A DNA stretch of 41,601 nucleotides from Actinomycetota bacterium. Its GTDB lineage: Bacteria > Actinomycetota > CADDZG01 > JAHWKV01 > JAOPZY01. Within the stretch, counting starts at the first letter, position 1. Every line of letters starts with the position of its first letter. Location: the NCBI GenBank assembly GCA_025963875.1, contig JAOPZY010000173.1, forward strand, positions 1 through 41,601, given 5' to 3'. The notes under the pieces are model-generated. The model saw only the letters and a program-made list of their open reading frames with translations, was not told the DNA's origin and searched no databases. The position numbers and the translations under genes were made by a program. This document shows, in pieces, positions 1-9,974 of this stretch.

Positions 1-2610
1 ATGGACCAGTTGTTCCAGTGACTCGACAAGCTCCAGTTCCTTGACGTTCAGCTCGTCGGCGACCAGGCGGGCCAGGGCGGCCACGTCGGCGCGCTCGGCC
101 GCCGGCACCACGGCCAGGGCCTTCGGCAGCGGCTGGCGGGTCTTCACCTTGGCCTTCGCCCGGGCGGCCCGGCCGAGGGCGACGAGCTGGCGGGCCAGGC
201 GCATCCGTTCCAGGAGCCCCTGGTCGATCAGCCCCTCGTCGTAGGTGGGCCAGTTCTCGAGGTGCACGCTCTCGGCCCGGTGAAGGTTGGTGAAGATCTC
301 CTCGGCGATGAAGGGGGTGAACGGCGCCGTCAGCTTGGCGACCGTCACCAGGCACTCGTGCAGGGTGGCGTAGGCGGCGGCCTTGTCGCCGCCGTCACCG
401 GCGTCGCCGGATCGCCAGAAGCGCCGGCGGCTGCGCCGCACGTACCAGTTGGAGAGGTCGTCGACGAAGGCGTCCAGCCGGCGCCCGCCGGCCAGGGCGT
501 CGTAGTTCTCGAGGGCGTCGGTGACGTCGCGGATCGTGTCGTGCAGCTCGGCGATGATCCACTGGTCGAGCTCGGGGCGCTCGGGCACCGGTACGGCGGG
601 CATCGCAAGGTCGAAGCCGTCGAGGTTGGCGTAGGTCACGAAGAACGAGTACGTGTTCCACAGGGTGAGCAGGTAGCGGCGCAGGAACTCGTCGATCACC
701 GTCGGGCCGAGGCGGCGGTTGGCCCACGGCGACCCGCTCGTGAACAGGTACCAGCGGAGGGCGTCGGCCCCCTGGGACTCGAGCAGCGTCCACGGATCGA
801 TGATGTTCCCCAGGCTCTTGCTCATCTTCTTGCCTTCTTCGTCCACCATGAGCCCGAGGCACAGCACGTCCCGGTAGGAGTTCTGCCCGAAGACGAGCGT
901 GGAGATGGCCATGAGCGAGTAGAACCAGCCCCTGGTCTGGTCGAGACCTTCGCAGATGAAGTCGGCCGGGAACCGCTTTTTGAAGACCTCCTCGTTCTGG
1001 TGGGGGTAGCCCCACTGGGCAAAGGGCATCGATCCCGAGTCGTACCAGGCGTCGATGACCTCGTGGGTCCGCGTCGCCGTCGCACCGCAGGCGGGGCAGG
1101 GGAAGGTCACCTCGTCGACGAACGGGCGGTGCGGGTCGAGGTCCGAGAGATCCCGCCCGGCCAGCGCGGAGAGGTCGGCGCGGGAGCCGATGCAGGTCTC
1201 ATGCCCCTCGGGGCAACGCCAGATCGGCAGCGGCGTCCCCCAGTAGCGGTCGCGCGAGAGCGCCCAGTCGACATTGTTGGCCAGCCAGTCGCCGTACCGC
1301 CCGTGCTTGATGGACTCAGGGTGCCAGTTCGTCTTCTCGTTCTCCGCCAGCAGCTCCTCCCGCTTGGCCGTCGTCCGGGCGAACCAGGAGCTCTTCGCGT
1401 AGTAGATCAGCGGGGTGCCGCAGCGCCAGCAGTGCGGATAGTTGTGCTCGTAGGGCTCGACCTTGAAGAGCAGGCCGCGGGAGTCCAGGTCGGCGACCAC
1501 CGCCTCGTCGGCGTCCTTCACCCACATCCCTGCGAACGGTCCCGCCTCCGGCACGAAGTGGCCCGAGGGATCGACGAGGTTGACAAACGGCAGTCCGTGG
1601 CGCCGCCCCGCGTCCAGGTCCTCGGCGCCGAAGGCCGGGGCGATGTGCACGATGCCGGTGCCGTCCGTTGTCGTGACGTAGTCCTCGGCGATGACGAACC
1701 AGGCAGGCTTGTCGGGCTCAACGAAGCGGAACGGCGGTGTGTAGCGCTTCCCCACGAGCTGGTCGGCGCGCATCGTCTCGATGATCCGGGCGCCGGGCGC
1801 CAGCACCTTCTCGACGAGGTCCTCGGCGAGGATCACGGGCCGCTCGTGGCCCCAGGCGACGAGGGCATACGTCACGTCGGGATTGACGGCGGCCGCCAGG
1901 TTGGAGGGCAGCGTCCACGGCGTCGTCGTCCAGACCAGCAGGTCACCGGGTGCGTCCTCGAGTGGGAACCGCACGTAGACGCTCGGGTCGGTGACGGTGC
2001 GGTAGGACCCCGGGTAGTTGAGCTCGTGGTCGGAGAGCGCGGTCTCACAGCGTGGGCAGTACGGCACCGACTTGTAGTCCTGGAAGAGCAGGCCGGCTTC
2101 GTAGAGGGTCTTCAGGCTCCACCAGACGCTCTCGACGTACTCCGGCTTCATCGTCATGTAGGCGTCGTCCATATTGATCCAGAAGCCGATGCGCTCCGTG
2201 AGCCGTTCCCAGTCGGCGACGTAGCGCAGCACGGACTCCCGGCAGAGGGCGTTGAACCGCTCGATCCCGTACTCCTCGATCTGGGCCTTGCGGTGGAAGC
2301 CGAGCTCCTTTTCGATCTGCAGCTCGACCGGCAGGCCGTGGCAGTCCCAGCCCGCCTTGCGGTGGACGTAGCGGCCGCGCATCGCGTGGAATCTCGGGAA
2401 GATGTCCTTGAAGATCCGGGCCTCCACGTGGTGGACGCCCGGGCGGCCGTTGGCGGTGGGGGGGCCCTCGTAGAAGACCCACTCCTCGGCGCCCTCGTTG
2501 CGCGTAAGGCCGCGCGCGACGATGTCGTGCTCGGCCCAGTAGGCAAGGATCCGCCGCTCGAGTTCGGGGAAGCTCACCTGGGATGAGACAGGAGAAAAGG
2601 GAAGATCCAT
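1..2610 (-). CDS. ileS: Isoleucine--tRNA ligase, type 2 (IleRS2); 3' end lies outside the window
   Basis: Manual minus-strand translation from ATG 2610: MDLPFSPVSSQVSFPELERRILAYW, WVFYEGPPTANGRPGVHHVEAR, GWDCHGLPVE, WTTTPWTLPSN, DEEGKKMSKS (KMSKS at 814-828). Missing from the ORF track because its stop is off the left edge. Confidence 0.96.
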   Translation of the reverse strand, partial: MDLPFSPVSSQVSFPELERRILAYWAEHDIVARGLTRNEGAEEWVFYEGPPTANGRPGVHHVEARIFKDIFPRFHAMRGRYVHRKAGWDCHGLPVELQIEKELGFHRKAQIEEYGIERFNALCRESVLRYVADWERLTERIGFWINMDDAYMTMKPEYVESVWWSLKTLYEAGLLFQDYKSVPYCPRCETALSDHELNYPGSYRTVTDPSVYVRFPLEDAPGDLLVWTTTPWTLPSNLAAAVNPDVTYALVAWGHERPVILAEDLVEKVLAPGARIIETMRADQLVGKRYTPPFRFVEPDKPAWFVIAEDYVTTTDGTGIVHIAPAFGAEDLDAGRRHGLPFVNLVDPSGHFVPEAGPFAGMWVKDADEAVVADLDSRGLLFKVEPYEHNYPHCWRCGTPLIYYAKSSWFARTTAKREELLAENEKTNWHPESIKHGRYGDWLANNVDWALSRDRYWGTPLPIWRCPEGHETCIGSRADLSALAGRDLSDLDPHRPFVDEVTFPCPACGATATRTHEVIDAWYDSGSMPFAQWGYPHQNEEVFKKRFPADFICEGLDQTRGWFYSLMAISTLVFGQNSYRDVLCLGLMVDEEGKKMSKSLGNIIDPWTLLESQGADALRWYLFTSGSPWANRRLGPTVIDEFLRRYLLTLWNTYSFFVTYANLDGFDLAMPAVPVPERPELDQWIIAELHDTIRDVTDALENYDALAGGRRLDAFVDDLSNWYVRRSRRRFWRSGDAGDGGDKAAAYATLHECLVTVAKLTAPFTPFIAEEIFTNLHRAESVHLENWPTYDEGLIDQGLLERMRLARQLVALGRAARAKAKVKTRQPLPKALAVVPAAERADVAALARLVADELNVKELELVESLEQLVH

Positions 2611-2619
2611 GTGCGCAAC

Positions 2620-2626
2620 TACTCTA
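2620..2626. promoter_or_regulatory. Putative symmetric bidirectional -10 element (TACTCTA) for ileS and DUF167
   Basis: TACTCT on + (2620-2625) overlaps TAGAGT on - (2621-2626) in the 24-bp gap between the divergent ATGs at 2610 and 2635. Confidence 0.55.
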
Positions 2627-2634
2627 CAGGCGGT

Positions 2635-2964
2635 ATGAGCCCGGATCTGAGCGCGGCAGTGCGGGAGGTCCCCGGCGGCGTCGAGCTTTCGGTCTTCTGC
2701 CAGCCGAAGGCCGCCCGATCCGCCCTGATCGGCATGCACGGCGGCGCCTTGAAGGCGAAGGTGAAGGCACCGCCGGTCGAAGGGAAGGCGAACCAGGCGC
2801 TGCTCGACCTCCTGGCCGGGGCGCTCGGCGTGCCCCGGGGCCGGCTGACGCTGGTGTCGGGGGAGCAGAGCCGCAACAAGCGGGTCCGCGTGGAGGGCGT
2901 TGACGCAACCACCGCCCTTGGGGCCATAATGGCGGCCCTCGCACCCCTCTCGGCAGACAGGTAG
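2635..2964 (+). CDS. DUF167/UPF0235 (YggU-like) protein
   Basis: Motifs VFCQPKAARS, LKAKVKAPPVEGKANQAL, GEQSRNKRV. ATG 2635 preferred over GTG 2611. Confidence 0.88.
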   Translation: MSPDLSAAVREVPGGVELSVFCQPKAARSALIGMHGGALKAKVKAPPVEGKANQALLDLLAGALGVPRGRLTLVSGEQSRNKRVRVEGVDATTALGAIMAALAPLSADR

Positions 2965-3855: not shown

Positions 3856-4334
3856 GCGCTCCGGATCGAGCCAGGTCCCGGACCATCCTGGTAGCCACGG
3901 CGGCAGCGACCGTCCTCGTCGATCAGGTGTCCAAGGTGCTCGCCGCCAACCTCCTCGCCGACGGCCGCCCCCACCTGCCGGTGGGCGGTTTCTGGGACCT
4001 CGAGCTCACCCGCAACCCGGGCGGCGCCTTCGGGATCCTCCCGCAATCGACGCTGCTGTTCTTTCTGGCGACCCTCCTCATCGTTGGCGGCGTACTCGTC
4101 TGGGGCCTGCGGTCCGGCCAGGCACCGCTCCCGCTCGGGTTGATCGCGGGCGGGGGCCTCGGCAACCTGATCGACCGGGTGGCCCGGGCCCCTGGTGGCC
4201 TACAGGGCCGGGTCGTCGATTTCATCCACTTCCACTTCTGGCCGACGTTCAACCTCGCCGACAGCGCCATCGTGATCGGGGTGGCGTTGCTGATCCTGCA
4301 CGAGGTGCGGCCGCATCCGTCGGAAACCTCATGA
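3828..4334 (+). CDS. lspA: Signal peptidase II (lipoprotein signal peptidase); start codon uncertain
   Basis: Motifs DQVSK, RNPGGAFG, GGGLGNLIDR, VVDFI, WPTFNLADSAI; typical position before rluA. Confidence 0.92.
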   Translation: MQESRGAPVGAPDRARSRTILVATAAATVLVDQVSKVLAANLLADGRPHLPVGGFWDLELTRNPGGAFGILPQSTLLFFLATLLIVGGVLVWGLRSGQAPLPLGLIAGGGLGNLIDRVARAPGGLQGRVVDFIHFHFWPTFNLADSAIVIGVALLILHEVRPHPSETS

Positions 4335-5254
4335 CTCCCCCCGAGTCCTTCGAGGTCGGCGAGGACGGCGCCGGCAAGCGCCTCGACGCATGGATCGCCG
4401 CGGCGGCCGGCCTGTCCCGCGGGGAGGCCCAGAGCCTGATCGAGCGGGGCCTCGTCACGCTCGACGGCGCTCCGGCCCCCAAGTCGCGCAAACTGGCCGC
4501 CGGGGAGACGGTGCAGCTCCAGCGGGACGCCGCCGACCAGGCCGAGGACACCTCCGCCCCCTTCGCCGTCGCCTACGAGGACGAGCACCTGGCCGTCATC
4601 GTCAAGCCGCCCGGCGTGGTGGTGCACCCGGCCCCCGGCAACCGTTCCGGGACGTTGGTCGAGGCCCTCGGCGTCCGGATGCCGCTGGCTCCCGCTGCGG
4701 GGGCCGGGCGCGCCGGTATCGTCCACCGCCTCGACAAGGACACCTCCGGGCTGATAGTCGTCGCCAAGACGGATCAGGCGTACGAGGGCCTCGTGGCCGC
4801 CATGGGCGGGCGGGAGGTCTCCCGGACCTACCTCGCCCTCGTGGCAGGGACCTTCGCCCTCCCGGCGGGCCGCATCGAGGCGCCGATGGGCCGCTCCCCC
4901 CGTGAGCGCACGAGGATGGGGGTGGTGTCCGGGGGCCGGGAGGCCGTGACCGAGTTCAAGGTGCTGGAGTCCTTCGGCTCCTCGACCCTGATCGAGGTCC
5001 ACCTGGGGACGGGCCGGACGCACCAGATCCGGGTCCACCTCGCCCACATCCGCCACCCGGTGGTGGGCGACGCCGTCTACGGCAAGTCCGCCAACGCCCT
5101 GGCCCGCCAACTCGGCCTCGAGCGCCCCTTCCTGCACTCGCACCGCCTTCAGTTCGTGCACCCGGTGACGGGGGTCGCCATCGACATCGTCGACCCGCTA
5201 CCGCCCGACCTGGCGGCTGTCCTCGAGGCACTCCAGGCTGCTGACCGACCTTAG
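4331..5254 (+). CDS. RluA-family (RluD-like) pseudouridine synthase
   Basis: N-terminal S4-like RLDAW, KPPGVVVHP, GIVHRLDKDTSGL, TGRTHQIRVH; ATGA overlap with lspA. Confidence 0.95.
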   Translation: MTPPESFEVGEDGAGKRLDAWIAAAAGLSRGEAQSLIERGLVTLDGAPAPKSRKLAAGETVQLQRDAADQAEDTSAPFAVAYEDEHLAVIVKPPGVVVHPAPGNRSGTLVEALGVRMPLAPAAGAGRAGIVHRLDKDTSGLIVVAKTDQAYEGLVAAMGGREVSRTYLALVAGTFALPAGRIEAPMGRSPRERTRMGVVSGGREAVTEFKVLESFGSSTLIEVHLGTGRTHQIRVHLAHIRHPVVGDAVYGKSANALARQLGLERPFLHSHRLQFVHPVTGVAIDIVDPLPPDLAAVLEALQAADRP

Positions 5255-5290
5255 GAGCCCATCGCGCAAATACGCGCGATAGACGCCTAA
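5251..5290. repeat. Imperfect palindrome/hairpin overlapping the rluA stop
   Basis: TTAGG-agccc-ATCGCGC-aaatac-GCGCGAT-agacg-CCTAA; homologous to 7361-7410. Confidence 0.75.
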
Positions 5291-5333
5291 CTTCACAAGC
5301 CCCCACATTTCTGTACGCTCTTTCACGTGTTTA

Positions 5334-5363
5334 TTGACAAATGTCCTGTCTCTACTCTACATT
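5334..5363 (+). promoter_or_regulatory. Putative sigma70 promoter of module copy 1
   Basis: TTGACA-N18-TACATT; both hexamers are identical in copy 2 while the spacer has diverged. Confidence 0.7.
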
Positions 5364-5421
5364 GAGGTCGAGCAGCGTAGATAAGTGCTGTGATGAGCTA
5401 ATGTGGATGGAGGAGGGCAGA

Positions 5422-5970
5422 ATGAAAGGGAGATGGATAGGGAGCTTCATCGGTATCCTGGCGGTCGTTGCCGTTAGTTTCGTGTGGTCGCCGCCGGTTG
5501 GTGCCACCGGCTTGTCATCGAAGGCCGTCCCTATGTCAGGAGGGCCGAACTGCGGGAAGCGCGCCAAGGTCTATGACAAGATCTGGTCGGTCAAGGCTCA
5601 CGACCATCGGGTAGTGTTCCTCCGCTGCGGCGAATTTCCCAATGGCCCCAGCGAGGGCTGGGGGTGGCGGCACATCATGGCAAAGCAGCACCCGGCCCAA
5701 CTCGGCTGGGACCGGGACTACTTTATGTGGGCGATGCAGCAGACGGTACAGGGGGCCGACCCCAAGTATCAGCCAAACAACGCGACCTTTCTTTACTCCG
5801 CTCCTATCTTCACGATTCGATTTGATAATGCGGCTGGGTCGTATTTCAGGGACGAATACACCTTCAAAGTGGTTGTCATCCGCAGGAATGGCGATGTAAT
5901 AACGGCGTACGGCGAATATCTCAGGACCACCAATTGTCACACGATTGAGCGATGCAAGGAGTACCCATGA
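5422..5970 (+). CDS. Secreted protein, 182 aa; putative BECR/barnase-like RNase toxin
   Basis: GGAGG SD before ATG 5422; Sec-type signal peptide MKGRWIGSFIGILAVVAVSFVWSPPVGA; motifs LRCG, GWGWRHIMAKQH and terminal FKVVVIRRNGDVITAY; four Cys. The CDS is supported by homology to copy 2; the function is inferred. Confidence 0.65.
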   Translation: MKGRWIGSFIGILAVVAVSFVWSPPVGATGLSSKAVPMSGGPNCGKRAKVYDKIWSVKAHDHRVVFLRCGEFPNGPSEGWGWRHIMAKQHPAQLGWDRDYFMWAMQQTVQGADPKYQPNNATFLYSAPIFTIRFDNAAGSYFRDEYTFKVVVIRRNGDVITAYGEYLRTTNCHTIERCKEYP

Positions 5971-6365
5971 AGTCCGGACGAGGGCCGGGTGTCTTCCCTG
6001 TCAGTCTCCCAGAGCAACTGACCCAGATCCTGATGTCCAGGTATGTCGATATGGACGGCAACCCCGCCGACCCGTTCATCGACGAGGACTGGAGCCTGCA
6101 GACGTGCCAGTTCGTCAACGGGGACCCCAGCCGGCTTGAAGTCATCTTCACCGGGATCCTCGGCGGGAGGCTTCGTCTGACGCTGTCGGCGAAAAAGCTT
6201 GGCCAGGGCTGGTTCGAGCCCGGCGTAATCGGGGGAGACGGCGATCCGGCCCTCACCCCGATTGCCAAAAAGCTGAGTACCCTCGTAAAAGAGACAGTCG
6301 AACCCAACCAGCCGGATGTTTCCCTCGACATGGATCTCATCAGGATGAGGCCGTCGAGGATCTGA
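5967..6365 (+). CDS. Small cytoplasmic protein, 132 aa; putative immunity/inhibitor partner
   Basis: AAGGAG SD 5 nt before ATG 5967, ATGA overlap with the upstream stop (alternative ATG 5952). No signal peptide or TM segment. About 80% identical paralog at 7921-8334. Confidence 0.7.
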   Translation: MKSGRGPGVFPVSLPEQLTQILMSRYVDMDGNPADPFIDEDWSLQTCQFVNGDPSRLEVIFTGILGGRLRLTLSAKKLGQGWFEPGVIGGDGDPALTPIAKKLSTLVKETVEPNQPDVSLDMDLIRMRPSRI

Positions 6366-6695
6366 GGACGTTGAGCCCGTGTCAAATGGCGGAGTCCATG
6401 TCGGATGTGACGGCTGACTTTGTGCACCTTCTCCTCGAGGCCGGTTGGCCCATGGGAAAGGACGAGTACATCCGAATCGCCGAGCCCGACGTCTCGAGTC
6501 TCGTGAGATGTTACGGCTCTCGCAGAACCTTCCTATCGTCACGCAATGGCACACGCGGTTGTTCCGGCCAACATCATGGAGTGGTGGCACACGAAAGACT
6601 CCTCGGTGGTCGTCAGCGCCGAGGAAGAGACCTCCAGCTGACAACCTCTCAGCCTTCGAAGCCGCGACGCTGCGCTCACCAAGTACAGCAGGTCC

Positions 6696-7283
6696 ATGAG
6701 CACGGATGAGGGAGGCGCGACTACTCCGAGCAAGTCTGGTGTTCCGCTTATCCGTGCCACACCCGCTCCGTGGGCCCCTCCGACGGTGGAGTTGGTTTTC
6801 GACGGAACCACTCCGGTCACGATGACGGGCTCCCTCTACACCTCGAATTGGGTGACAGCACGAGGCAACTGGACAATATCCCCTGGGGTCCCAGTCGAGT
6901 GGCCGGCGCCCTGCGCGGTCCACGCATCAGCAGGGGCTACGTTGGTCCTTGGTACCACCACACCACCCAAACTCGTCCTCTGGAAGGTCTATAGCGACGT
7001 GGACCCACAGAGCGGCGAGCCTACCTCCGACCCTAGCGCGACGTACCAATGCAACCGATTTTCGGAACCTCGGTGCGCGTTTTCAATAACGGCCGACGAG
7101 ACGGCGGTCGGCGGTTTGCCTTCAGAAATCGTGACGGCCCCCTACATCACGGTGTTCTGCATCTGGTTCTTGCCGCCAGACCAGCAAGGACAGGGGCCAT
7201 CACCCGATTCCTATGCCTCAGCCAGTTGGCTCTTTCGGACCAGCCTGAGTGTCAAGGGCCAGCGATCGGAGCCCGAGCCGTGA
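6696..7283 (+). CDS. Hypothetical protein, 195 aa, Pro/Thr/Trp-rich, four Cys
   Basis: Long ORF with protein-like composition in the AT-richer island; no family recognised. Confidence 0.55.
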   Translation: MSTDEGGATTPSKSGVPLIRATPAPWAPPTVELVFDGTTPVTMTGSLYTSNWVTARGNWTISPGVPVEWPAPCAVHASAGATLVLGTTTPPKLVLWKVYSDVDPQSGEPTSDPSATYQCNRFSEPRCAFSITADETAVGGLPSEIVTAPYITVFCIWFLPPDQQGQGPSPDSYASASWLFRTSLSVKGQRSEPEP

Positions 7284-7360
7284 AAGACGTGACGGTCCTT
7301 CCTTAAGACACCGAGCCCTCGCTTCGTCCTCACAGGAACTCCGTCCACCGCTCAGCCGAC

Positions 7361-7410
7361 CGATGTTGGGAAGCTATCGCGCACATACGCGCGATAGACA
7401 CCCAACTTCG
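7361..7410. repeat. Imperfect palindrome/hairpin
   Basis: CGA-t-GTTGGG-aag-CTATCGCGC-acatac-GCGCGATAG-aca-CCCAAC-t-TCG. Confidence 0.8.
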
Positions 7411-7448
7411 CGCTTCGCATCCTATCGATGCTCCTCGGCACGCACCTA

Positions 7449-7477
7449 TTGACAACGGCGAGCGGCACGTCTACATT
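7449..7477 (+). promoter_or_regulatory. Putative sigma70 promoter of module copy 2
   Basis: TTGACA-N17-TACATT, at the same distance from the hairpin as in copy 1. Confidence 0.7.
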
Positions 7478-7547
7478 GATGTTGTCAAGTGTAGAAGTGT
7501 GTTGTGATGAGAAAAAGGCATATCGACGCAGGAGCGAGGAGGGCAGA

Positions 7548-7939
7548 GTGAGGGGGAGACGAATTGGGAGTTGCGTTGGCATCTTGGCGGTCGTTGTCGT
7601 TGTGGTCGCCGCCAGTTGGTGCCACCGGCTTGTCATCGAAGGCCGTCCCCATGTCAGAGGGCCGAACTGCGGGAAGCGGGCCAAGGTCTATGAGAAGATC
7701 TGGTCGGTCAAGGCGCACGACCGTCGGGTCGTGTTCCTCCGCTGCGGCGAGTTTCAACCTCCCAGCGGGGCCCCATCCTCACGATTCGGTTTGAAAAGGC
7801 CGCCGGGTCCTACTTCAGGGACGAATACTCCTTCAAGGTCGTTGTTATCCGCCGGAATGGCGATGTCCTAAGGGCATATGGCGATTATCTGAGGACCACG
7901 AATTGTCAGACCATTGAGCGATGCAAGGAGTACCCATAA
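7548..7939 (+). pseudogene. Disrupted paralog of the 5422-5970 secreted protein
   Basis: GTG after GGAGG-containing SD. Relative to copy 1: 8-bp and 1-bp deletions near the signal peptide, a 3-bp loss, and a frameshifting deletion of about 145 bp near 7768. The C-terminal part (PILTIRFEKAAGSYFRDEYSFKVVVIRRNGDVLRAY...CKEYP*) remains in another frame. Confidence 0.85.
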
Positions 7940-8334
7940 GATCCAACCGAGGGCCGGGGGTTTTCCCGGCCACCCTTCCCGAGCAGCTCACCCACATTTT
8001 GACGTCCATTAATGTCGATATGGAGGGCAATCCGGCCGATCCGTTCATCGACGACGACTGGCGCCTGCAGGCGTGCCAGTTCGTCGACGGGGACCCCAGC
8101 AAGCTTGAGGTTATCTTCACGGGGATCCTCGGCGGACGGCTGCGTCTGACAGTGTCGGCCAAGAAGCTCGGGCAGGGGTGGTTCGAGGCTGGGGAGATCT
8201 GGGGTGACGGCGATCCGGCCCTGACCCCGATTGCCAAGCAGCTGAGTAGCCTCGTGCAGGAGACGGTCGTTCCCAAGCAGCCGGATGTCTCGCTCGACAT
8301 GGATCTCATCACGATGGGCCGGTCGAAGATTTGA
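7921..8334 (+). CDS. Paralog of the putative immunity protein (open ORF, start uncertain)
   Basis: 137-codon ORF with no indels, 28 amino-acid differences from copy 1 by manual count. The SD-associated ATG of copy 1 is ATA here, so expression would need ATG 7921 or a non-canonical start. Confidence 0.6.
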   Translation: MQGVPIRSNRGPGVFPATLPEQLTHILTSINVDMEGNPADPFIDDDWRLQACQFVDGDPSKLEVIFTGILGGRLRLTVSAKKLGQGWFEAGEIWGDGDPALTPIAKQLSSLVQETVVPKQPDVSLDMDLITMGRSKI

Positions 8335-8373
8335 GACGAATCTGGCGGCGCGGCATCACGAGAATGCCGGAGC

Positions 8374-8829
8374 TTAATCCTCGACCAGTTCCGCCTCCGG
8401 CGCCATCTGCATCGTCCCCACCAGCGTGACGACGAAGAGCAGGAAGGTGATTCCGTGCACCGCCGTGCACCACAGGCACAGGGCGTCGAGGGTGAACAGC
8501 TCCGTGTAGACCAGGTACAGCACCATGAGGATGCCGGCGACGGCGGCCCCAACCCGGGCCCGGCGCACGAGGCCCGACTCGCTGCGCCAGGCGGCGGGGA
8601 GGTGGAGGGGGGTGATGGCCACGAAGTACAGCAGGCCCAGCAGCGCCACCGGCACGCCCAGGATCGCGGACTGGGGGCTCTCGGTCACCTTGGCGCAGTT
8701 CACGATCCCCGTCTCCGGGCAGGCCAGGGTCACCTTGGCGTTGTAGTGGGCGATGGTGAGATACAAAGATACGCCGAGCCCCGCAAGGCACAGCAGCGGG
8801 GCGGCGACACGCACCCAGCGTGCGGTCAC
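8374..8829 (-). CDS. Vitamin K epoxide reductase (VKOR) family protein
   Basis: GLGVSLYLT, CPETGIVNCAKVTESPQSAILGVPVALLG, CLWCTAVH; GTG 8829 overlaps the upstream TGA. Confidence 0.92.
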   Translation of the reverse strand: MTARWVRVAAPLLCLAGLGVSLYLTIAHYNAKVTLACPETGIVNCAKVTESPQSAILGVPVALLGLLYFVAITPLHLPAAWRSESGLVRRARVGAAVAGILMVLYLVYTELFTLDALCLWCTAVHGITFLLFVVTLVGTMQMAPEAELVED

Positions 8830-9821
8830 TGGACCGGGATGCGCGTCTCCAGCCCGGCAATCATGGGATCCGAGCACACCGGGGCAGGCTTGTTGCCCGT
8901 CACAGCGCACAGCGCGGCGGTCATCCAGTTGGCCGTCCCATCGAGGCGCTGCCCGAGCCCGGTCCCCGACGTGGCGGCCGACGCGATCTGCGCCCAGTCC
9001 TTGCCCTCGAGGTCGGAGGCGTTGTAGCTGGCGCCGGCAAGGACCCACCGGTTGCCGATGTCCACGAAGGGGATGGTGCCCGACGTCGCGCCCTGGGGCA
9101 GGGTGGGCTGGTTGTCGAGGGTGTTGACCAGCGTCCCGTCGGCGGTGGGCAGCGTGTCGAGCGACTTGTGGTTGCGGTCCTGTGTCTCGAAGGGGGTGAA
9201 CGACAGGTAGGTGCTCGTGTAGGTGACGCCCGAGAAGCTGAAGGTATTGATGTTCTTGGGGGTGTCGCTGGCGGACGACAGCGCGTAGCGAAGTCCCTTG
9301 AAGGTGCCGAAGCGTGACAGGGCGGCGATCATCGGCCATCGCTGGGTTGCGCAGAACGGGCAGAACAGGCCGCCGACGTACAGCACGCGGGGAAGGCCGC
9401 CGTTGACCAGGGGCGGAGGGTTGCCCGAGGGCAGGCGGAAGTCCGGGGCGAACCCCCCGTCTCCCACCTTGTCGAGGACCGAGACGGGAAGGGCGGTGAT
9501 CTGGGCGACCACCGCCGGGTTGGCGTCCTGCACGGCGGCGGTCGTGTCGGCGGCGGGCTTGCTGCTGAGCTTGAGCGCGATCAGCCCGGCGATGACCACG
9601 ACGACCAACCCGATCGCGCCGTAGGTGAGGACCCGCTGGCGCTGCTTGCGTGCCCGCCGGGCCGCCTCGGCGGCCTTGCGCTCGGCGGCCGCTTCCGCCT
9701 CCGCCCGTTTCGCGGCCTTGGCAGCGGCGACCTTCTCGGGGTCGATGGGGGCGGCGGCAGGCTTTCGGCGCTGGCCGCTTCCTGCCTTGCGCGGCGGCGG
9801 CTTGCGGGTGGGTTCGGCCAT
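8826..9821 (-). CDS. DUF929-family membrane-anchored thioredoxin-like (DsbA-like) protein
   Basis: Basic N-terminus, one TM helix, LYVGGLFCPFCATQRWPMIAALSRFGTF, TIPFVDIGN; coupled to VKOR. TAGAAT lies 8 nt upstream of ATG 9821. Confidence 0.85.
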   Translation of the reverse strand: MAEPTRKPPPRKAGSGQRRKPAAAPIDPEKVAAAKAAKRAEAEAAAERKAAEAARRARKQRQRVLTYGAIGLVVVVIAGLIALKLSSKPAADTTAAVQDANPAVVAQITALPVSVLDKVGDGGFAPDFRLPSGNPPPLVNGGLPRVLYVGGLFCPFCATQRWPMIAALSRFGTFKGLRYALSSASDTPKNINTFSFSGVTYTSTYLSFTPFETQDRNHKSLDTLPTADGTLVNTLDNQPTLPQGATSGTIPFVDIGNRWVLAGASYNASDLEGKDWAQIASAATSGTGLGQRLDGTANWMTAALCAVTGNKPAPVCSDPMIAGLETRIPVQ

Positions 9822-9866
9822 GAGGCGCAATTCTAGGCGAGGGGGCTGTGCGCCGACTGAGCCGAG

Positions 9867-9919
9867 ACCTTCTTTGTGTGAAAAAGGATGATAAACATCC
9901 ATAATCACACAAAGAAGGT
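9867..9919. repeat. Long inverted repeat: 15-bp perfect arms plus inner stem
   Basis: ACCTTCTTTGTGTGA-aaaa-GGATG-ataaa-CATCC-ataa-TCACACAAAGAAGGT. Confidence 0.9.
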
Positions 9920-9945
9920 TGTAGACGCGATATTGGCCCCGACTG

Positions 9946-9974
9946 TTGCACCCCGCTCGGCCCCGGCGTAGACT
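9946..9974 (+). promoter_or_regulatory. Putative dnaE promoter
   Basis: TTGCAC-N17-TAGACT. Confidence 0.5.

Follow-up and report, generated by a model that had tools for sequence, protein, structure and literature searches.

A predicted Sec-exported BECR-fold toxin and a putative immunity protein of a new family, encoded at a hot spot in the chromosome of an uncultured soil actinobacterium

The window analyzed here is the whole 41,601-nt stretch of contig JAOPZY010000173.1 (assembly GCA_025963875.1) of an uncultured soil actinobacterium, and its subject is a pair of overlapping genes, designated module A, which an earlier reading of the letters had put forward as a secreted RNase toxin with its immunity protein (the original prediction). 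The first gene, the toxin gene, was located at 5422..5970 on the + strand, with GGAGG 5 nt before its ATG, and encodes 182 aa with a predicted Barnase/EndoU/ColicinE5-D/RelE (BECR) fold domain at approximately residues 41–182. Its product begins with MKGRWIGSFIGILAVVAVSFVW, in which a basic n-region leads into a hydrophobic core of 18 residues (maximum Kyte-Doolittle value of 2.45, residues 6–20) and then into SPPVGA/TG. We infer that residues 1–28 constitute a Sec-type signal peptide cleaved after VGA. As some homologs begin with MMRRW, a Tat signal was considered as well; it was rejected for the window protein, where KGRW stands without a twin arginine. The protein is likewise not a lipoprotein by sequence, with no lipobox found before C44. 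The mature protein is basic, with an isoelectric point (pI) of about 9.1 and a net charge of about +5. It contains four cysteines (44, 69, 172, and 178), the motif GWGWRHIMAKQH at residues 79–90, and GDVITAY at residues 157–163. The linker between the signal peptide and the domain measures only about 12–15 residues (29 to about 40, with the domain start taken from the alignment to RHS tips described below).

The second gene, the putative immunity gene, lies at 5967..6365 on the + strand and encodes a partner protein of 132 aa. Its ATG overlaps the TGA of the toxin gene (ATGA, 5967–5970), and the sequence AAGGAG at 5956–5961 stands 5 nt upstream of this ATG. An extra in-frame ATG is present at 5952 in this copy, and the database homologs of the partner begin at the overlap ATG. 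The partner is acidic (pI 4.9), contains DMDGNPADPFIDED at residues 28–41, and has no hydrophobic segment and no signal peptide. Upstream of the pair, a promoter-like site TTGACA-18-TACATT was found at 5334..5363 (+), matching the consensus at 10 of 12 positions and presumed to act as a promoter. Three promoter-like sites were found in the region 5100–8600, compared with a shuffle mean of 0.7, and the site of module A is kept in a second copy of the module (module B). According to the GC profile of the window, the GC content is 0.57–0.62 over approximately 5200–8400, compared with 0.68–0.75 outside. The gene layout of the original prediction, with its signal peptide, four cysteines, motifs, and ATGA-coupled acidic partner, was confirmed from the sequence, and these values also agree with the dedicated promoter and the AT-richer island that it had claimed.

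Neither the toxin nor the partner had a meaningful match in Pfam, NCBIfam, or the PDB sequences. Using hmmscan at E values up to 1, no match of the toxin was obtained with the named BECR families of Pfam (Barnase, EndoU_bacteria, Colicin D/E5, RelE/ParE, and Ntox7/19/21/35/36/41/47–50), and no named BECR family appeared when 20 aligned toxin relatives were scanned singly against Pfam-A at E values up to 10. The 37 aligned relatives of the partner, scanned singly at E values up to 10, gave no known family, and the family profiles of the toxin and the partner found nothing among the PDB sequences. The claim that the partner belongs to no recognized family consequently held for Pfam, NCBIfam, and the PDB sequences, with the 37 relatives included. 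The ESM Atlas offered no usable match for the partner, and for the toxin it contained only unnamed Actinomycetota clusters plus EndoU_bacteria at 0.78, a lead below the level of a match. A word-indexed search of 5.8 billion proteins returned 23 clusters for the toxin gene, with at least 51% identity, and 64 clusters for the partner. The database relatives of both genes were unnamed or annotated as "hypothetical", some of them from metagenome-assembled genomes labeled "Actinomycetota bacterium". Since both genes have these clusters and the dN/dS values between the two copies in the window are 0.17–0.33, the genes are real rather than chance open reading frames (ORFs). The literature found on BWH57/CdiA, on BECR/Rhs toxins, and on Sec-dependent actinobacterial polymorphic toxins consisted of general works, with no description of the toxin family.

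The mature toxin domain was modeled from a more diverse alignment, A4, which had been built from alignment A2 by removing P0015 (internal gap), P0018 (frameshifted N-terminus), P0020 (foreign C-terminus), and P0023 (divergent N-terminus). The accepted model (me9bdf0198dcf), which is a prediction, reached a predicted local distance difference test score (pLDDT) of 91.7 and a predicted template modeling score of 0.85. It superseded a first model of the full-length protein from A2, which had a mean pLDDT of 62, values below 50 in the motif region, and no Foldseek match at E ≤ 0.001. In full-length numbering, the accepted model consists of a β-hairpin (53–58/64–68), two helices (81–87 and 90–94), a core helix (98–111), a meander of four strands (115–117, 122–135, 140–153, and 158–171), and a short helix (175–179). 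In mature numbering, the helices span 42–48, 51–55, and 59–72, and the strands 76–78, 83–96, 101–114, and 119–132. Section 28 of Zhang 2012 (PMC3482391) and the description in Li 2022 (PMC9424270) give the BECR core as an N-terminal helical segment and, after it, an antiparallel meander of four strands, and the toxin model contains both parts in this order.

A Foldseek search with this model produced a single significant match (E = 2.2e-4, probability 1.00), namely 7m5f_C, the chain (119 residues) that represents the CdiA-CT toxin of Serratia marcescens BWH57, for which the target description (PMC8616854) gives a toxin of 127 aa and a CdiI immunity protein of 98 aa. A Foldseek-independent search of 48,161 representative chains was also headed by 7m5f_C, with a root-mean-square deviation of 4.0 over 101/119 residues, 22% identity, and a Z score of 8.5, which is only just above the range of 7–8 that models without relatives often reach according to the note of the tool itself. 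The next row followed about 3 units lower. Below 7m5f_C came the CdiA-CT toxins of NC101 (5.4), Y. kristensenii (5.0), and Kp342 (4.9). The entries just under the best match were tRNase or RNase toxins (5i4q_A, 5e3e_B, and 6cp9_A); a toxin-antitoxin entry came next, and colicin D had rank 6. Further BECR rows, with Z scores of about 4–5.6, comprised colicin D, RelE, BrnT, PrpT, ParE, YxiD, colicin E5, and Nsp15. Colicin E5 stood at rank 21 in the first fold listing and at rank 4 in a second look, and barnase was absent among the best 50 fold matches. The cone fold of NTF2-like proteins, which was considered as another assignment, ranked below the BECR class (Z of 3–4.2 vs 8.5). The BECR assignment was accepted because Foldseek gave a high probability and the top rows all belonged to one class, and the mature domain of about 140 residues is thus predicted to adopt the fold that the original prediction had expected.

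Residue conservation was evaluated over 20 sequences reaching down to 29% identity. The residues H84, G81, G95, Q107, T108, P128, and I129 were invariant, while R63, R83, H90, Y125, Y146, and T161 were at least 90% conserved. The motifs that had been called typical of BECR domains fared differently in this comparison. T161, the threonine of ITAY, lies within the fourth of the model's strands, and a conserved Ser/Thr in strand 4 of BECR RNases is documented (PMC3482391, section 28; described also in PMC9424270). By contrast, only G81 and H84 of the G-x-G-x-x-H-I motif were invariant across distant relatives. Two-histidine acid-base catalysis is reported for BECR enzymes in the description of PMC9424270, and the conserved set of T161, H84, R63, R83, and H90 would provide both the strand-4 residue and the basic and histidine residues of a BECR active site. 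H84 and H90 stand on a kinked helical segment of the model, as do H47 and H52 in 7M5F, where the proposed active-site candidates are H47, E51, H52, and R89 (PMC8616854, target description).

On this predicted site, an RNase is the most likely activity of the toxin. We also considered that the pair might be a BECR-fold toxin with its immunity protein in which the toxin has another target, as ParE poisons gyrase, or another enzymatic activity. A common fold is no proof of function, ParE-family structures occur among the fold matches at Z scores of 3.8–4.4, and the activity of 7m5f is not established in its description (PMC8616854). The invariant histidine, the near-invariant second histidine, the two arginines, and the strand-4 threonine nevertheless form the pattern of BECR RNases, and the rows just under 7m5f_C are tRNase or RNase toxins, which makes a non-RNase toxin distinctly improbable.

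The distant homologs of the toxin domain were obtained from an exhaustive profile search of 1.84 billion representatives, which gave 16 matches at E ≤ 0.001. Three of these were rejected: P0100 (MAM repeats and a GFGWRV motif) and P0102 (Ig repeats) were spurious, and P0101 aligned only to P0020, a chimeric row of A2, in its foreign C-terminal part. P0020 combines a toxin-family N-terminal half with an unrelated C-terminus common to P0101, which was the source of the spurious match, and is probably a chimeric or rearranged metagenomic gene. Among the accepted matches, residues 1–43 of P0094 correspond to positions 33–76 of the 76 positions of TIGR03696, the RHS-associated core (42.5 bits, cut-off 32.5), and the domain homologous to the toxin follows directly after this segment. 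P0103, a protein of 499 aa annotated at NCBI as an RHS repeat-associated core protein of Acidimicrobiales, contains a YD repeat and then TIGR03696 at residues 322–369 (36.5 bits). From residue 369 it is 40% identical to residues 41–172 of the window toxin (132 residues), so that this RHS tip begins exactly where the mature toxin domain of the window begins. P0093 and P0097 showed the same junction of RHS core and domain by eye, without a significant model match.

In polymorphic toxin systems, the segment C-terminal of the RHS core is the toxin, according to the relevant part of Zhang 2012 (PMC3482391). Since the homologous domains of P0094 and P0103 directly follow an RHS-associated core, the domain of the window toxin can be regarded, by sequence homology, as a polymorphic-toxin tip and as a member of the RHS tip repertoire. 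The window gene itself is not an RHS toxin, since the protein has no RHS repeats or core and no NCBIfam match. The claim that the toxin has no RHS, LXG, or WXG carrier was therefore upheld for this gene, with only the short linker before the domain, and is to be qualified by the distant homologs, which are RHS tips. This latter finding strengthened the toxin reading.

The genome contigs were also scanned for such loci. With A4, 31 pattern matches were obtained, none of which was confirmed, and with P0103, eight RHS loci matched in the shell only and carried other tips, with no toxin tip or partner at E ≤ 10. A search of the five whole genomes behind these eight loci yielded one distant match, L040, at 1462–1896 (+) in genome G116, a Microthrixaceae metagenome-assembled genome. 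It encodes a very distant relative of the toxin domain of 144 aa (LRCG...WGYRHIAKDH, 35.7 bits) and adjoins a split or frameshifted transposase of the Mutator family. An overlapping 78-aa ORF downstream of it, to which no family was assigned, could be a different immunity gene.

The pairing of the two genes was evaluated at 12 metagenomic loci with toxin relatives, of which eight were assessable in having an undamaged toxin 3′ end and more than 64 nt downstream. At all eight, the partner began at the ATGA overlap, in seven cases as a complete gene and in L022 cut by the contig end. Two further contigs (L021 and L028) end too early to judge. In L025 both genes are damaged, and in L027 the toxin is broken at residue 138 by DNA coding for a DUF6788 protein and for another with a weak likeness to UPF0236 (E = 0.0099, short of the Pfam cut-off), with no partner. 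The L027 insert spans 1162–2132 and is probably a mobile element. In this clade, no intact toxin gene without a partner was seen, and the expected co-occurrence of the two genes was accordingly found, with the partner even outliving damaged toxin copies. Apart from the very distant L040, the pair is conserved with a co-oriented gene immediately downstream of the toxin, as in toxin-immunity systems.

Among the database proteins, partner clusters are more numerous than toxin clusters (64 compared with 23). L023 (1182–2004) and L024 (405–1227) carry two different tandem partner genes 35 nt apart after one intact toxin gene, and these are 77% and 79% identical to P0002, the window partner. In the sister genome G001, two loci have an internally deleted toxin remnant followed by a partner, which is full length on contig C145 and cut by the contig end on C9. 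The contamination of G001 is 6%, and its two loci possibly represent two strains. Among 61 related genomes, both genes were matched in two and neither in 59. For the mature toxin (A4) and the partner (A3), a predicted complex gave a score of 0.00 (mark 0.32) in a run without controls, and it counts neither way on binding.

A second module in the window, overlooked in the original prediction, lies at 7449–8334 and has 82% mean column identity to module A over the aligned DNA. It comprises a promoter-like site TTGACA-17-TACATT at 7449..7477 (+), a degraded toxin gene at 7548..7936 (+), and an orphan immunity gene at 7936..8334 (+). Compared with copy A, 8 bp and 1 bp are missing from the part of the toxin gene that encodes the signal peptide, resulting in frameshifts there, and further losses of 3 bp and then 145 bp follow. 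The deletion of 145 bp (5657–5801 in the coordinates of A, with the junction near 7770) shifts the frame and takes out approximately residues 79–127, including GWGWRHI, H90, Q107/T108, and Y125. The ORF of the partner is intact and 79% identical to copy A, with a pI of 4.6. Its coupled ATG has become ATA, and the nearest in-frame ATG lies at 7921, 15 nt upstream. Between A and B, the dN/dS was 0.19 for the partner (dS 0.61) and 0.17 and 0.33 for the surviving toxin pieces. Therefore, the modules are old diverged alleles that were both constrained, and the damage of B is recent.

Modules A and B were bridged without mismatch by contigs of two samples, X1 record 4 (5502–7644) and X3 record 23 (6105–7636), where X1 may be the source sample and X3 belongs to the same study. 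Because contigs from two samples bridge the modules, their arrangement is not a binning or assembly artefact. In run X2, an independent soil sample, one contig runs from the toxin of module A (5772) to the toxin remnant of module B (7769) with 24 foreign letters between, which looks like an undeleted or recombinant allele; this observation is weak, with the shorter side comprising only 27 letters.

Both modules are situated in a low-GC variable island (5255..8373, without strand) delimited by its GC content and its Pfam flanks, an RluD-like pseudouridine synthase gene (4331–5254) at the upstream edge and a VKOR-family gene (8374–9951, − strand) at the downstream edge. The same site carries variable module content elsewhere, since the module was always found after rluD (nine other loci) and before VKOR where this was visible (two loci). 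In three of the four loci comparable over at least 100 rluD residues, the pair was more diverged from the window than rluD. The identities were 90% for rluD, 73% for the toxin, and 68% for the partner in L022; 88% for rluD and 71% for the toxin in L028; and 93%, 73%, and 77% and 79% for the two partners in L023. The smallest gap was found in L019 (rluD 93%, toxin 82%, partner 86%), and the exception was L017 (toxin 97% and partner 96% vs 94% for rluD, over only 35 residues). In L026, a fragment at 871–1047 that resembles RluD in its C-terminal part is located downstream of the pair rather than upstream, a hint that the hot spot has been rearranged. Immunity genes that are orphaned or in surplus were thus observed, in module B, G001, L023, and L024, along with different alleles at the shared rluD-VKOR site.

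These observations bear on an alternative without any toxin, in which a secreted protein of another role, such as an NTF2-like binding protein, is merely co-transcribed with an unrelated cytoplasmic protein. The NTF2-like cones among the weak fold matches (Z of 3.2–4.2) and the lack of a family annotation for either protein would suit it. Such a pair would not, however, account for the RHS-tip homologs, a CDI toxin (contact-dependent inhibition) as the sole significant Foldseek match, and the strict overlap-coupled pairing with orphan partners and a hot-spot location, and we regard this alternative as very remote.

In the barnase/barstar pair of Bacillus amyloliquefaciens, a small basic RNase that belongs to the wider BECR assemblage has a Sec signal peptide and is matched by an acidic cytoplasmic inhibitor; related secreted microbial RNases with cytoplasmic inhibitors exist. 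In a strict counterpart of this pair, the RNase would scavenge nucleotides or phosphate outside cells without ever entering them, and the partner would only protect the producer against enzyme that has folded ahead of export. Module A is barnase-like in architecture, since a small and basic domain with an RNase fold stands behind a signal peptide and the coupled gene would supply an acidic inhibitor to the cytoplasm; there is no translocation or receptor domain, and four conserved cysteines suit a stable extracellular enzyme. An inhibitor needed for its own enzyme alone should vanish with the enzyme, and for this reason the intact partners beside wrecked toxins (module B and C145 of G001, with the C9 partner cut by the contig end) speak against a scavenging RNase. 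The tandem partner genes in L023 and L024, the use of the domain as an RHS toxin tip, and the faster divergence of the pair than of its housekeeping neighbor point in the same direction, and we consider the scavenging function, although the main rival of the toxin reading, unlikely.

We therefore interpret module A as encoding, at a hot spot of the chromosome, a carrier-less RNase-type toxin exported by Sec and an immunity protein from a new family, with a probability of roughly 70%. The original prediction was supported in all parts that computation could address. The pair is read as a toxin-immunity cassette because an acidic cytoplasmic partner is coupled to an exported basic BECR domain and persists or multiplies where the toxin decays, and because the pair diverges fast, occupies a fixed hot spot, and has RHS-tip homologs. 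According to this interpretation, the first gene would encode a small basic protein exported by Sec, and after loss of the signal peptide almost only the BECR-fold toxin domain of about 140 residues would remain. This domain would most likely be a metal-independent endoribonuclease, in which H84 and H90 on the kinked helix may act as acid and base, while R63 and R83 would hold the phosphate and T161 of strand 4 would complete the site. The coupled gene would provide an acidic cytoplasmic protein of a new family that, judging from the context, binds and blocks the toxin, both when the toxin has folded before export and, more importantly, when it comes from neighbors. At the hot spot between rluD and VKOR, related strains carry different alleles, extra immunity genes, and immunity genes beside wrecked toxins. 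This pattern is the signature of strain-against-strain antagonism.

Several points weigh against the interpretation of module A as a toxin-immunity cassette, including the closeness of the best Z score to the range of models without relatives and the appearance of NTF2-like cones in the fold search. The active site of the nearest structure, 7M5F, is only proposed in its description, with its activity not established (PMC8616854). The correspondence between H84/H90 and H47/H52 is likewise a putative one. The four conserved cysteines suggest disulfides for extracellular life, which fits a purely extracellular RNase as well. The toxin has no receptor-binding or translocation domain, and no entry route is proposed for it; unlike the ABP systems, it also has no delivery domain and no adjacent protease. 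The orphan-partner argument is weakened because the toxin damage may be too recent, the low dN/dS of module B mostly dates from before the toxin was broken, and expression of the module B partner is uncertain because its coupled ATG is lost. L040 has no signal peptide, RHS shell, or P0002-type partner within about 1.4–1.5 kb on either side. Finally, the distribution is narrow, since the stand-alone family was found in two of the 113 genomes of the whole class, both from one genus.

A bolder extension of the cassette interpretation is that the BECR domain would suffice by itself as a diffusible weapon. Once exported by Sec, the cationic protein of about 15 kDa might enter neighboring monoderm actinobacteria without a receptor-binding or translocation module and without an activating protease; the hot spot would then record a strain-level arms race in soil, and the partner would represent a new immunity fold. 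We put this forward tentatively, as a possibility that we would not expect to hold. By analogy, and with the same reserve, such entry could be a minimal version of the membrane-potential route proposed for ABP toxins.

The remaining genes of the island probably stand outside the toxin-partner pair. ORF112 (6371–6709, +) and ORF195 (6696–7283, +), the latter sitting between the modules, are island cargo without Pfam matches. ORF195 is 92% conserved in L025, where a B-type module lies downstream of it, and genome G004, although without a toxin module, encodes a homolog with 35% identity; ORF195 is a genuine gene riding in the island. The ORF112 stretch, a doubtful coding region, is partly conserved after the partner gene in L017 (1246–1669), L018 (1482–1777), and L019 (1482–1598), and the conserved pieces suggest frame changes. 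By Pfam, the housekeeping flanks comprise DksA/TraR, LspA, and the RluD-type synthase upstream and VKOR and DnaE downstream. The protein encoded by 8374–9951 (−) has 525 aa, of which the last approximately 125 residues form the VKOR domain (disulfide-bond formation), while the first approximately 380 residues are without a Pfam match; the location of this gene beside an exported four-cysteine toxin is probably a coincidence. At the start of the window (1–2739), large ORFs overlap on both strands, namely 262–2586 on the + strand (774 aa, no Pfam match) and 1–2739 on the − strand (913 aa, open-ended).

The kind of system is already well known, since BECR toxins with immunity proteins, Sec export, and RHS tips have all been described. 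The toxin and partner families are new by Pfam and NCBIfam, and the toxin domain might coincide with one of the S8-BECR1–3 families (Li et al., 2022, PMC9424270). With module A, the polymorphic-toxin repertoire of the BECR class gains one toxin family and one immunity family, both unnamed and without a Pfam or NCBIfam model, and a form of the domain that stands alone and is exported by Sec becomes connected with forms delivered on RHS proteins. If the carrier-less protein indeed intoxicates neighbors, no simpler diffusible protein toxin would be known from Gram-positive-type bacteria, and it would be a handy model for cationic nuclease domains crossing the membrane. If it does not enter cells, it would be a secreted RNase of the ordinary barnase/barstar sort, from a new sequence family, in an uncultured soil lineage.

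Among known systems, CdiA-CT/CdiI of BWH57 (PDB 7M5F; CASP14 H1065) is the closest in structure, and through module A this orphan structure gains its first fold relative outside the Gram-negative CDI systems. According to its target description (PMC8616854), the BECR fold of the toxin is built from a hairpin, a kinked helix, a core helix, and a four-strand sheet, which is the same elaboration as in the model of the window toxin, and an acidic CdiI patch covers the basic toxin face. The two systems also resemble each other in two histidines on a helical segment plus an arginine as the proposed active site, and in a basic toxin with an acidic immunity protein. They differ in that no sequence kinship was detectable, the family profile search against the PDB sequences being empty, in the histidine spacing (H-x4-H in the BWH57 toxin, H-x5-H in the window toxin), and in the size of the immunity protein (98 aa vs 132 aa). 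Moreover, the BWH57 toxin is carried in a Gram-negative bacterium at the tip of CdiA, a giant filament that has a separate domain for entry into the cytoplasm, whereas the window toxin stands alone behind a signal peptide in an actinobacterium. The tRNase domains of colicins D and E5 and the CdiA-CT tRNases of NC101 and Kp342 have the BECR fold in common with it (Z of 4.0–5.6), and colicin D-like enzymes are described as having a conserved strand-4 Ser/Thr, comparable to T161. This likeness is at the level of the fold only, with 3–17% identity and different catalytic residue sets, and these toxins reach their targets through colicin or CDI machinery with receptor and translocation domains.

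The ABP or S8-PTS systems (AbpT toxin, AbpP protease, AbpI immunity protein) are described as Sec-exported, diffusible, strongly cationic toxins of Bacillota and Actinomycetota with cytoplasmic immunity proteins, in which 9/16 toxin families are BECR RNases (PMC13460014; PMC9424270). In contrast to them, the window toxin has no room for a BetaH domain in its linker of about 12–15 residues, and no peptidase S8 gene was revealed when the island ORFs and the genes on either side were scanned against Pfam. True sequence homologs of the domain (40% over 132 residues) occur as the C-terminal tips of RHS polymorphic toxins in Acidimicrobiales and other metagenomic sequences; the window toxin differs in having a signal peptide and a short linker instead of RHS repeats and core. 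With barnase and barstar the window pair has the same gene logic in common, although it lacks any Pfam match, the barnase and barstar families included. The orphan and tandem partners of the window family and its RHS-tip relatives set it apart from that pair and point to antagonism over scavenging.

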